A stretch of 64,000 nt of DNA, from the sequence record NC_054930.1. The stretch is one strand, 5' to 3'. Made by a program: the position numbers and the translations under genes. The DNA comes from Escherichia phage PP01. Below are positions 39,770 through 40,160 of this stretch, one piece after another (within the stretch, counting starts at the first letter, position 1; every line of letters starts with the position of its first letter). Under the pieces are notes generated by a model that saw only the letters and a list, made by a program, of their open reading frames with translations, had not been told where the DNA came from and searched no databases.

Positions 39770-39830
39770 GTAATAGTATCACTACTAAAACCCCGTGTAA
39801 ACAACTTTGTGAAATTATTTTAAATCTTCT
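39770..39830 (-). promoter_or_regulatory. T4-type early promoter (repeat copy A, 3' of the ipI-locus gene)
   Basis: Plus strand ggtaatagtatcacta...gtgtaaacaactttgtgaaattattttaaatc; near-identical to the copy at ~40100-40160. Confidence 0.6.
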
Positions 39831-40072
39831 AATCGTTTCTTCATCTTAGAACCATTTTTAGCGATTTCTCCTGCGTCAGAGCATAATGCTAAAAGTGCTT
39901 TAACTTTAGTTTGGTCTCCTTTAAAAGACGAAGGATCGACTGCAGCAGCAAGTTCTTTAATACGAGAGAAAAGACGCTCAGCTTCAGCTAAAGCCATTCC
40001 AAGCTTTACTTCCATACCATGAGAAGATTCAGTGATAATAGTTTCTGTAGCAAACTCTTTATAAGTTTTCAT
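39815..40072 (-). CDS. Internal-protein-like gene with capsid-targeting leader at the ipI locus, 85 aa
   Basis: N-terminal MKTYKEFATETIITE leader; located between the tRNA region and 57B, where T4 carries ipI; sequence differs from what I recall of T4 IPI. Confidence 0.65.
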   Translation of the reverse strand: MKTYKEFATETIITESSHGMEVKLGMALAEAERLFSRIKELAAAVDPSSFKGDQTKVKALLALCSDAGEIAKNGSKMKKRLEDLK

Positions 40073-40099
40073 TTTATTTTTCCTAATTAATTTTGATGA

Positions 40100-40160
40100 G
40101 GTAATAGTATCACTACCTCATCAGTGTGTAAACAACTTTGTGAAATTATTTTAAATCGTC
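40100..40160 (-). promoter_or_regulatory. T4-type early promoter (repeat copy B, 5' of the ipI-locus gene)
   Basis: Plus strand ggtaatagtatcactacctcatcagtgtgtaaacaactttgtgaaattattttaaatc. Confidence 0.6.

Follow-up and report, generated by a model that had tools for sequence, protein, structure and literature searches.

The ip5 gene was named in 1994, as the gene of an internal protein of the T-even phages. The abstract of Repoila et al. 1994 reportedly presented a flanking sequence of roughly 70 bp, comprising a T4 early promoter and an overlapping inverted repeat, and proposed recombinational shuffling. In the GenBank record of RB32 (DQ904452, also drawn on here for the history of the locus), the remark "flanked by 43 bp direct repeat" is found. 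Passages of Arbiol et al. 2010 (PMC2839356), and likewise of Comeau et al. 2014 (PMC4122927), credit Repoila et al. 1994 with the promoter repeats at the internal protein (IP) loci and with the idea of shuffling. The IP-locus elements were described by Arbiol et al. as T4 early promoters with weaker, AT-rich stem-loops, which are analogues and not homologues of PeSLs (PMC2839356). Classical PeSLs, from RB49 and phi1, have a GC-rich terminator hairpin upstream of a sigma-70-like promoter. A comparison with integrons, in which small, promoter-served ORFs are individually exchangeable at one fixed site, was drawn by Arbiol et al. themselves (PMC2839356). A close known counterpart is T4 IPI (IPI*), an injected inhibitor of the type IV restriction enzyme GmrS/GmrD, which consists of beta sheets flanked by terminal helices (PMC3012670).

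The locus studied here lies in a 64-kb window, meaning the whole stretch of DNA that was analyzed. The promoter repeats around its ip5 gene are shuffling modules that earlier work had reported from this site; gene name, phenomenon and model have all been published, the interpretation offered by the initial annotation coincides with that model, and the finding is a re-discovery. It adds no new biology. As in the described IP-locus elements and PeSLs, short promoter-plus-stem-loop repeats flank small non-essential genes in a hyperplastic region, and the edges of indels and swaps between related phages fall in the modules. In contrast to the classical PeSLs, the inverted repeat at ip5 is weaker and AT-richer, encloses the -10 of a T4 early promoter and lacks a T-run. 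A complete promoter, an inverted repeat and indel edges placed in the modules are found, whereas a terminator role is not, which agrees with the published wording of "analogues, not homologues" (PMC2839356). Unlike in integrons, every cassette has its own promoter, crossovers occupy several positions rather than one site, and no integrase is listed in the related loci examined. With high confidence, ip5 is regarded as a swappable cassette of the ipI locus, presumably exchanged homologously at its modules and probably encoding an injected counter-defence protein.

The ip5 gene and its locus

The source phage is a T4-like Tequatrovirus. The 2.2-kb stretch around ip5 is 97% identical to Shigella phage pSs-1, T6, Shfl2 and Yersinia phage PST, with 857 phage records matching it. 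All genes of the locus are on the minus strand and are transcribed in the order 57A, 57B, the 85-aa ORF, tRNA.4, tRNA.3 and tRNA.2; then come eight tRNA genes in a block, with a segB-like ORF among them. The features around ip5, in the direction of transcription, are:

40146..40601, minus strand: gene 57B, 151 aa, anti-CBASS phosphodiesterase Acb1 (Pfam PF23474 Acb1, E 2.6e-60; PHROG 755)
40093..40161, minus strand: repeat copy B, the promoter module driving ip5 (repeat search, scans, promoter pattern), with the 57B end GACGATTTAAAATAA, then TTTCACAAAGTTG, the -35 TTTACA (40132..40127), a 17-nt spacer, the -10 TACTAT (40109..40104) with TG upstream, and the start of the 5'UTR
40094..40123, minus strand: inverted repeat enclosing the copy B -10, TGATGAGGTA / TACCTCATCA, 10 Watson-Crick bp
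40072..39815, minus strand: ip5, 85-aa ORF with the start MKTYKEFATE (PHROG 3499)
40028..40072, minus strand: ip5 codons 1-15, putative capsid-targeting leader, MKTYKEFATETIITE (assigned from sequence by the CTS and gp21 rules)
39815..40027, minus strand: ip5 body, predicted mature Ip5*, residues 16-85, 70 aa, pI 9.2, plus the stop codon
39762..39830, minus strand: repeat copy A, the promoter module driving tRNA.4 (repeat search, scans, promoter pattern), with -35 TTTACA at 39801..39796 and -10 TACTAT at 39778..39773
39559..39744, minus strand: tRNA.4, 61 aa, predicted small membrane protein (PHROG 1692, E 6e-35)

The names 57B and tRNA.4 are those annotated in RB14, RB32 and PST, and the two genes are the conserved upstream and downstream anchors of the Ip array. 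The interval between them, occupied by ipI in T4, is the classical hypervariable ipI locus, which is one of two polymorphic IP loci, and ip5, the single cassette of the source phage, lies within it. GenBank entry Z35082 from RB15, titled "DNA for Ip5, Ip9, Ip7, Ip8", lists ip5-ip9-ip7-ip8 between a 57B end at position 7 and a tRNA.4 start at 1423, and since the same two genes flank it, its locus is the ipI locus of the window. Within the tRNA cluster, about 1.7 kb from the Ip cassette, a 221-aa ORF (38148..37483) starts with a GIY-YIG-like motif and equals the annotated segB of PST and RB32 in position and length.

The 85-residue gene is ip5. It matches the "internal head protein" family PHROG 3499 over residues 1-85 of 85 (E 3.7e-50). 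Its product is annotated as Ip5 or IpV in RB14, RB32 and PST; teqskov and Sf24 encode the same protein at 100% identity, and identity to the counterparts in T2, T6, RB phages and PST is 95-96%. The Ip5/IpV of T2, T6, RB14, RB15, RB32, RB70 and PST is the same gene, 95-100% identical over 85 aa, and in these phages, as in the window, it stands directly downstream of 57B with the same upstream promoter module. Ip5 is the sole cassette in the window, a layout common to pSs-1, while T6/PST/teqskov, T2, RB14, RB32 and RB15 add others. A tblastn search recovered ip5 from 495 phage records; identity reaches at least 80% in about 267, T2 and T6 included, and is about 51% in 228, where the match is an Ip5 paralogue adjoining the lysozyme gene e. 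Ip5 is among the most widespread Ips at the 57B-tRNA.4 locus. Ip5 contains no Pfam domain, and a sequence search of the PDB gave nothing below E 0.5. A search for homologous proteins returned five clusters, all close relatives, and an exhaustive search of 1.84 billion representative proteins found three clusters of relatives at 50% identity, so that there is no wider family to lend Ip5 a function.

Identity as an IPI variant was considered and rejected, since BLASTP aligns the two proteins in the leader only (residues 1-22) and their PHROGs differ, 3499 for Ip5 versus 4363 for IPI as annotated in the T4 record. Locus and promoter module are the same for both, and IPI resembles Ip5 in size and charge and in a leader ending I-T-E, although no sequence similarity extends past residue 22. 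The capsid-targeting sequence is a MKTYQEFIAE-like N-terminus with key residues at position 4 (aromatic) and position 7 (Phe), and the prohead protease gp21 has the motif L/I-x-E at the propeptide end (PMC9026906). Tyr4 and Phe7 are both present in Ip5, and its leader ends in an I-T-E that fits the gp21 motif, the T4 IPI counterpart being the ITE at residues 17-19. I13-T14-E15-S16 is invariant in the Ip5 alignment, and ITE is retained in the short-leader variant P0004. Cleavage by gp21 is thus predicted after Glu15, giving a 70-residue mature Ip5* that would start at Ser16. The leader variant MKTYKEFATETIITE is common to the window, teqskov and RB70, and also to Sf24 by a 100% tblastn match.

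Ip5 is 14% Lys with a pI of 8.7. AlphaFold2, run on a shallow alignment of six sequences, gave two long helices at residues 17-44 and 54-84 with moderate confidence (mean pLDDT 72), and the body is predicted to be an antiparallel two-helix hairpin. The beta-sheet-containing IPI* differs from this predicted all-helical fold, which likewise speaks against placing Ip5 with IPI. Foldseek searches of BFVD and the PDB with the model matched generic helical hairpins only, such as the LSD1 tower and designed helical bundles, all at E > 0.4, and therefore no function is drawn from them. The initial annotation had placed at the position of T4 ipI a protein different from IPI, helical and Lys-rich after its leader, and the flanking genes, the BLASTP and PHROG results, and the composition and predicted fold bear this out.

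Promoter modules and cassette sets

A single two-copy direct repeat of 69 nt, at 39762-39830 and 40093-40161 with a spacing of 331 nt, brackets ip5. In an ungapped scan of both strands, copies A and B share 59 of 69 positions (86%), and the next best site in the window reaches 43/69; the runner-up sites, at 8450, 36329, 20377 and 21816, all belong to other early promoters. Within the window, the exact 32-mer GTGTAAACAACTTTGTGAAATTATTTTAAATC is limited to 39795-39826 and 40126-40157, even allowing three mismatches, with 0 matches expected from 100 shuffles. The exact 17-mer GGTAATAGTATCACTAC is likewise confined to 39769-39785 and 40100-40116 with three mismatches allowed, and a 9-nt variable spacer keeps the two exact blocks apart. 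On the minus strand, both copies read TTTACA-17 nt-TACTAT with TG upstream, which is a complete T4-type early promoter. The initial annotation had described direct repeats bracketing the gene, each with a complete early promoter and closer to each other than to the remaining early promoters of the window, and the scans agree with it on each count.

The repeat begins inside the upstream coding sequence. Gene 57B ends ..D-D-L-K-stop and the 85-aa ORF ..E-D-L-K-stop, with GATTTAAAATAA in common; the last five codons and stop of 57B (..A-D-D-L-K-stop, 40146-40163) extend into copy B, and copy A starts in the last ip5 codons, of which the final three and the stop (D-L-K-stop) are those of 57B. The Ip5 paralogue beside gene e in UFV13 (51% identity) can be aligned as far as ..RLE, beyond which its sequence reads KYISGASEK, while 57B of JD18 ends ..SEDLK-stop. 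These endings suggest that the last Ip5 codons belong to a duplicated module of 57B tail and promoter, whose repeat edge would lie inside the ORF.

The locus was compared among 13 GenBank phages and the window, together with 36 IMG/VR contigs found via the 57B anchor (L numbers below). Between 57B and tRNA.4, the number of leader-bearing ORFs ranges from 0 to 5, and their combinations are many, for example:

Ip5 alone: window, pSs-1
Ip5 and Ip6: PST, T6, teqskov, L015
Ip5 and IpI: RB14
Ip5 and Ip7: T2
Ip5, Ip9 and Ip7: RB32
Ip5, Ip9, Ip7 and Ip8: RB15
Ip9, Ip7 and Ip8: F13076
IpI alone: T4, fPS-2
Ip7 alone: L045
Ip6 alone: L046
Empty interval: vB_EcoM_11B_SA_NWU, L019, L020, Klebsiella phage JD18

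More distant genera have many further arrays with unnamed leader-bearing ORFs. The 57B proteins of L015, L045 and L046 are 100% identical to that of the window, yet these contigs carry three other cassette sets.

At each of the 45 junctions of the Tequatrovirus set there is a promoter module whose -35 and -10 keep a constant register. Indels and replacements have their edges within these modules, in the terminal codons of the preceding ORF or in the conserved codons of the leader. The upstream half of a module (ORF tail, -35 and 5' arm) goes with the upstream gene, and the downstream half (3' arm and 5'UTR type) goes mostly, not always, with the downstream gene. Eight half-module combinations exist among the 45 junctions, with evident chimeric junctions at Ip5>IpI of RB14, Ip5>Ip7 of T2 and Ip6>tRNA.4 of PST, which points to crossovers at several positions in the conserved blocks.

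Pairwise BLAST comparisons place such edges at ip5 itself. Against T4 and fPS-2, homology of the window spans 57B, copy B and the leader to codon 8, then stops, and resumes immediately past the ip5 stop. When T6, PST or teqskov is the partner, homology falls into two segments that share 39762-39785, the -10 core, and this overlap marks the place of the Ip6 gene missing from the window. Descent of the window as a recent, direct Ip6-deletion derivative of a teqskov-like genome was also considered; the junction fits, and the candidate was rejected because the flanks are only 96-99% identical, so that the loss of Ip6 is not recent in the teqskov-like lineage. In phage 11B, the module at 57B>tRNA.4 joins a 57B tail to a 43-nt core that matches the Ip5>tRNA.4 module of pSs-1 without a difference, and in L046 the 57B>Ip6 module shares its core exactly with the Ip5>Ip6 module of T6. 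Read from their sequences, both junctions combine a copy-B 5' end with a copy-A-type 3' end, the product that would be expected of recombination between the ip5-flanking repeats. L038 has an Ip9-Ip7 block with 92% DNA identity to RB32, against 75% for the 57B flank. The limits of this block are the ..EDLK-stop/promoter module on one side and a point some 25 nt inside tRNA.4 on the other; cassette transfer over larger distances is visible here. The comparison of the loci bears out the hypervariability that the initial annotation had cited for T-even phages, and its claim that the repeats permit cassette exchange by homologous recombination is supported by the edges of gain, loss and replacement that fall in modules between phages.

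Function of Ip5

By analogy with IPI, Ip5 would be made with its capsid-targeting leader, packed in the prohead core, trimmed by gp21 after Ile13-Thr14-Glu15 and injected with the DNA; it is from the leader alone that packaging, cleavage and injection are inferred, and Ip5 probably follows the same route as IPI. The likeliest job of such a protein would be to neutralize one specific host defence, probably a modification-dependent type IV nuclease of the GmrSD kind. Ip1, Ip2 and Ip3 had by 2025 each been shown to inhibit a different GmrSD enzyme (PMC12373910), and by the same analogy the inhibition of some modification-dependent nuclease is the most likely role of Ip5. A literature search returned no reported function for it. 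T2 and T6, which both encode Ip5, are restricted by GmrSD-ECOR21 and GmrSD-ECOR17 (PMC12373910), and hence Ip5 does not block either of these two enzymes.

Alternatively, Ip5 may be no anti-defence effector at all, but a dispensable basic protein of the core or associated with the DNA, which fills the prohead or helps DNA condensation or ejection. Like all Ips, it is a small, Lys-rich, basic protein (pI 8.7-9.2), its predicted helical hairpin is simple and shows no recognizable functional domain, and the restriction of Ip5-bearing T2 and T6 by two GmrSD variants also fits such a role. However, each of the three T4 Ips whose role is known inhibits GmrSD specifically (PMC12373910), and fast turnover of the locus directly downstream of the anti-CBASS gene acb1 is the typical pattern of counter-defence cargo. 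Furthermore, phages with an empty site exist, so that no Ip at the 57B-tRNA.4 locus is needed for assembly. A structural role is thus considered unlikely, and the preferred reading remains that of an injected inhibitor of a host nuclease. Given the inhibitors Ip1, Ip2 and Ip3, Ip5 is an obvious next candidate for a test of the GmrSD type, and near-isogenic natural pairs are at hand at this locus, namely the window or pSs-1 versus 11B_SA_NWU, and T6 versus L046.

Exchange of cassettes at the modules

In the proposed mechanism, each gene of the array is preceded by a module of about 70 nt consisting of the end of the preceding ORF, an AT-rich segment, an early promoter with its -10 inside an inverted repeat, and a 5'UTR with a ribosome-binding site, followed by the conserved leader codons. 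Modules are near-identical between junctions, and general homologous recombination would cross over there during replication or co-infection, deleting, inserting or swapping whole Ip genes while every gene keeps a promoter. The exchange would need nothing beyond ordinary homologous recombination. The longest perfect identity between copies A and B is 32 nt, which is short for efficient homologous recombination, and exchange in the source phage may therefore be rare. The likeness of the copies could be maintained in part by selection on promoter strength.

A different route would make the cassette sets mainly passengers of gene conversion driven by a homing endonuclease, SegB, with the promoter repeats as bystanders. 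The segB-like 221-aa ORF with its GIY-YIG-like motif is indeed located in the nearby tRNA cluster, 1.7 kb off. SegB is reported to promote preferred transmission of the T4 tRNA region when infections are mixed. Comeau et al. 2014 (PMC4122927) name homing endonucleases as an exchange route that operates in parallel. Co-conversion, however, should leave long continuous tracts, whereas the observed differences are indels of one cassette that begin and end within the 70-nt modules, between flanks that are still 95-99% identical on both sides. Homing as the main driver is therefore rated very unlikely, although the homing route and module recombination are not mutually exclusive.

The inverted repeat around the -10 raises the further question of site-specific exchange, in which it would serve as a folded signal similar to integron attC, or as the substrate of a structure-specific phage nuclease, with cassettes passing through mini-circles. 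In copy B, the -10 sits in the loop of a perfect 10-bp inverted repeat that folds as RNA into a 13-bp hairpin (-17.4 kcal/mol, z = -5.5). Among 17 distinct related junctions in the same register, 92.8% of the cells of the stem are paired, with compensatory GC<->AU changes at two stem positions and G-U intermediates in chimeric junctions, so that the symmetry is preserved across junction types; the covariation backing is modest, the sequences being related and the independent events few. Moreover, PeSL mini-circles were detected experimentally in RB49 and phi1 (PMC2839356). Against this, the inverted repeat of copy A is weak, with a GGGT/ACCC stem of 4-5 bp at 39767-39794 and an RNA fold of -12.9 kcal/mol (z = -2.3), and the T-even IP elements were termed analogues rather than homologues of PeSLs by Arbiol et al. 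(PMC2839356). No integrase or recombinase is annotated between gene 1 and the tRNAs in the related loci examined. Inferred crossovers lie at at least four places, i.e. the ORF tail/-35 block, the -10 core, the arm/UTR boundary and the leader codons, and this spread fits homology-driven exchange and not a single cut site. Neither the single crossover point nor the dedicated recombinase of an integron-like system was thus found at the 57B-tRNA.4 locus in these related loci, and site-specific exchange is judged highly improbable.

Transcription termination offers no other role for the stem, since no T-run follows the hairpin of copy A or copy B and the copy B hairpin is by the scan not an intrinsic terminator; the terminator scan found no terminator-like sites in 38700-41000, and a permissive Rfam search had no match within 39500-40300. 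A bolder version, in which the -10 inverted repeat is a dedicated signal, folded in ssDNA or RNA and recognized by a phage enzyme, and the array a true phage-borne system for capturing cassettes, akin to an integron whose integrase gene is not close by, in which Ip5 would be one mobile counter-defence cassette against some host nuclease, is likewise rated highly improbable. The already disfavored notion that the copies are alike merely as strong T4 early promoters under equal constraint, with no part in gene exchange, is almost certainly wrong: both copies fit the early-promoter pattern and other early promoters of the window share TTTCACAAAGTTGTTTACA and GGTACTAT, but the copies share 59/69 positions against at most 43/69 elsewhere in the window, their identity reaches the last codons of two unrelated ORFs (..DLK-stop) and non-consensus bases flanking the spacer, indel and replacement edges lie in these very blocks, and chimeric modules exist.

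The outcome that the initial annotation had named as fatal to its own proposal, a known IPI variant of established function flanked by generic promoter conservation, did not arise, as Ip5 is not an IPI variant, the literature search found no function for it, and the flanking similarity exceeds generic promoter conservation. In conclusion, homologous exchange at the promoter modules is retained as the preferred account, and the locus is a textbook-quality example of swappable injected, probably counter-defence, proteins at a fixed site beside acb1.

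The Ip5 C-terminus and the tRNA.4 promoter module

The codons for D-L-K-stop are the same at the ends of Ip5 (39815-39830), the 85-aa product of the ipI locus, and of 57B (40146-40161). In phage UFV13, the Ip5 paralogue encoded beside the lysozyme gene e (locus L014, 1201-1482) departs from Ip5 exactly at D-L-K-stop (..RLEKYISGASEK). Because of the common D-L-K-stop and this divergence point, the sequence suggests that the C-terminus of Ip5 was captured from a duplicated 57B-tail/promoter module. In Klebsiella Jiaodavirus phages, the promoter module of tRNA.4 and the opening codons of this gene are 88-93% nucleotide-identical to the window, as compared between 2001-2123 of the phage JD18 locus (L012) and 39713-39834 of the window, while 57B, next to the module, is about 68% identical. 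On nucleotide comparison, conservation of the tRNA.4 module in these phages is far above that of its flanks, and their empty site between 57B and tRNA.4 may be the ancestral state.

Leader-bearing genes and the tRNA cluster

A second IP locus was observed at 31771-32578 on the minus strand, where two neighbouring genes carry the capsid-targeting leader:

leader-bearing gene 1, minus strand: 105 aa, MKTYQEFIAE.., PHROG 3966
leader-bearing gene 2, minus strand: 157 aa, MKTYQEFITE.., PHROG 3155 'internal virion protein'

One early promoter only, at about 32625-32655, lies upstream of both genes, and the 16-nt gap between them is devoid of a promoter module, in contrast to the ipI locus with its intergenic module. 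Two further ORFs were found near tRNA genes:

36537-37010, minus strand: 157-aa ORF, PHROG 2280, whose N-terminus MKSYTQFLNEA.. resembles a degenerate capsid-targeting leader
37483-38148, minus strand: 221-aa segB-like ORF with a GIY-YIG-like motif at the start of its sequence, matching the segB homing endonuclease in position and length

The former is placed just downstream of tRNA-Arg, and its product may be an additional packaged protein beyond the two classical IP loci. The segB-like ORF interrupts the tRNA cluster, with tRNA-Arg and tRNA-Met on either side; ip5 is 1.7 kb away. RB14 has no such ORF at the corresponding position.

Early and late promoters

Inverted repeats bracket the -10 of two other minus-strand early promoters, ATAGGCTCAT..ATGAGCCTAT at about 35990-36060 and AGTTGGCAAG..CTTGTCAACT at 24576-24644, and -10 symmetry may be a broader trait of early promoters in variable regions, beyond IP loci alone. 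The T4 late-promoter motif TATAAATA, whose count in the window is not above chance, occurs on the minus strand at 41199-41206, inside gene 1 and upstream of 57A, and at 39100-39107, inside tRNA.2. A motif search of the window found none directly upstream of ip5. Late supply of Ip5 for prohead assembly, if any, would need read-through of the 57A-57B transcript.

57B and the Ip array

The stop codon of 57B and the first Ip ORF overlap in certain distant relatives, with no promoter in between. Gene 57B (40146-40601, minus strand) is Acb1, an anti-CBASS phosphodiesterase (Pfam PF23474, E 2.6e-60), and a known counter-defence gene therefore stands immediately upstream of the swappable Ip array.
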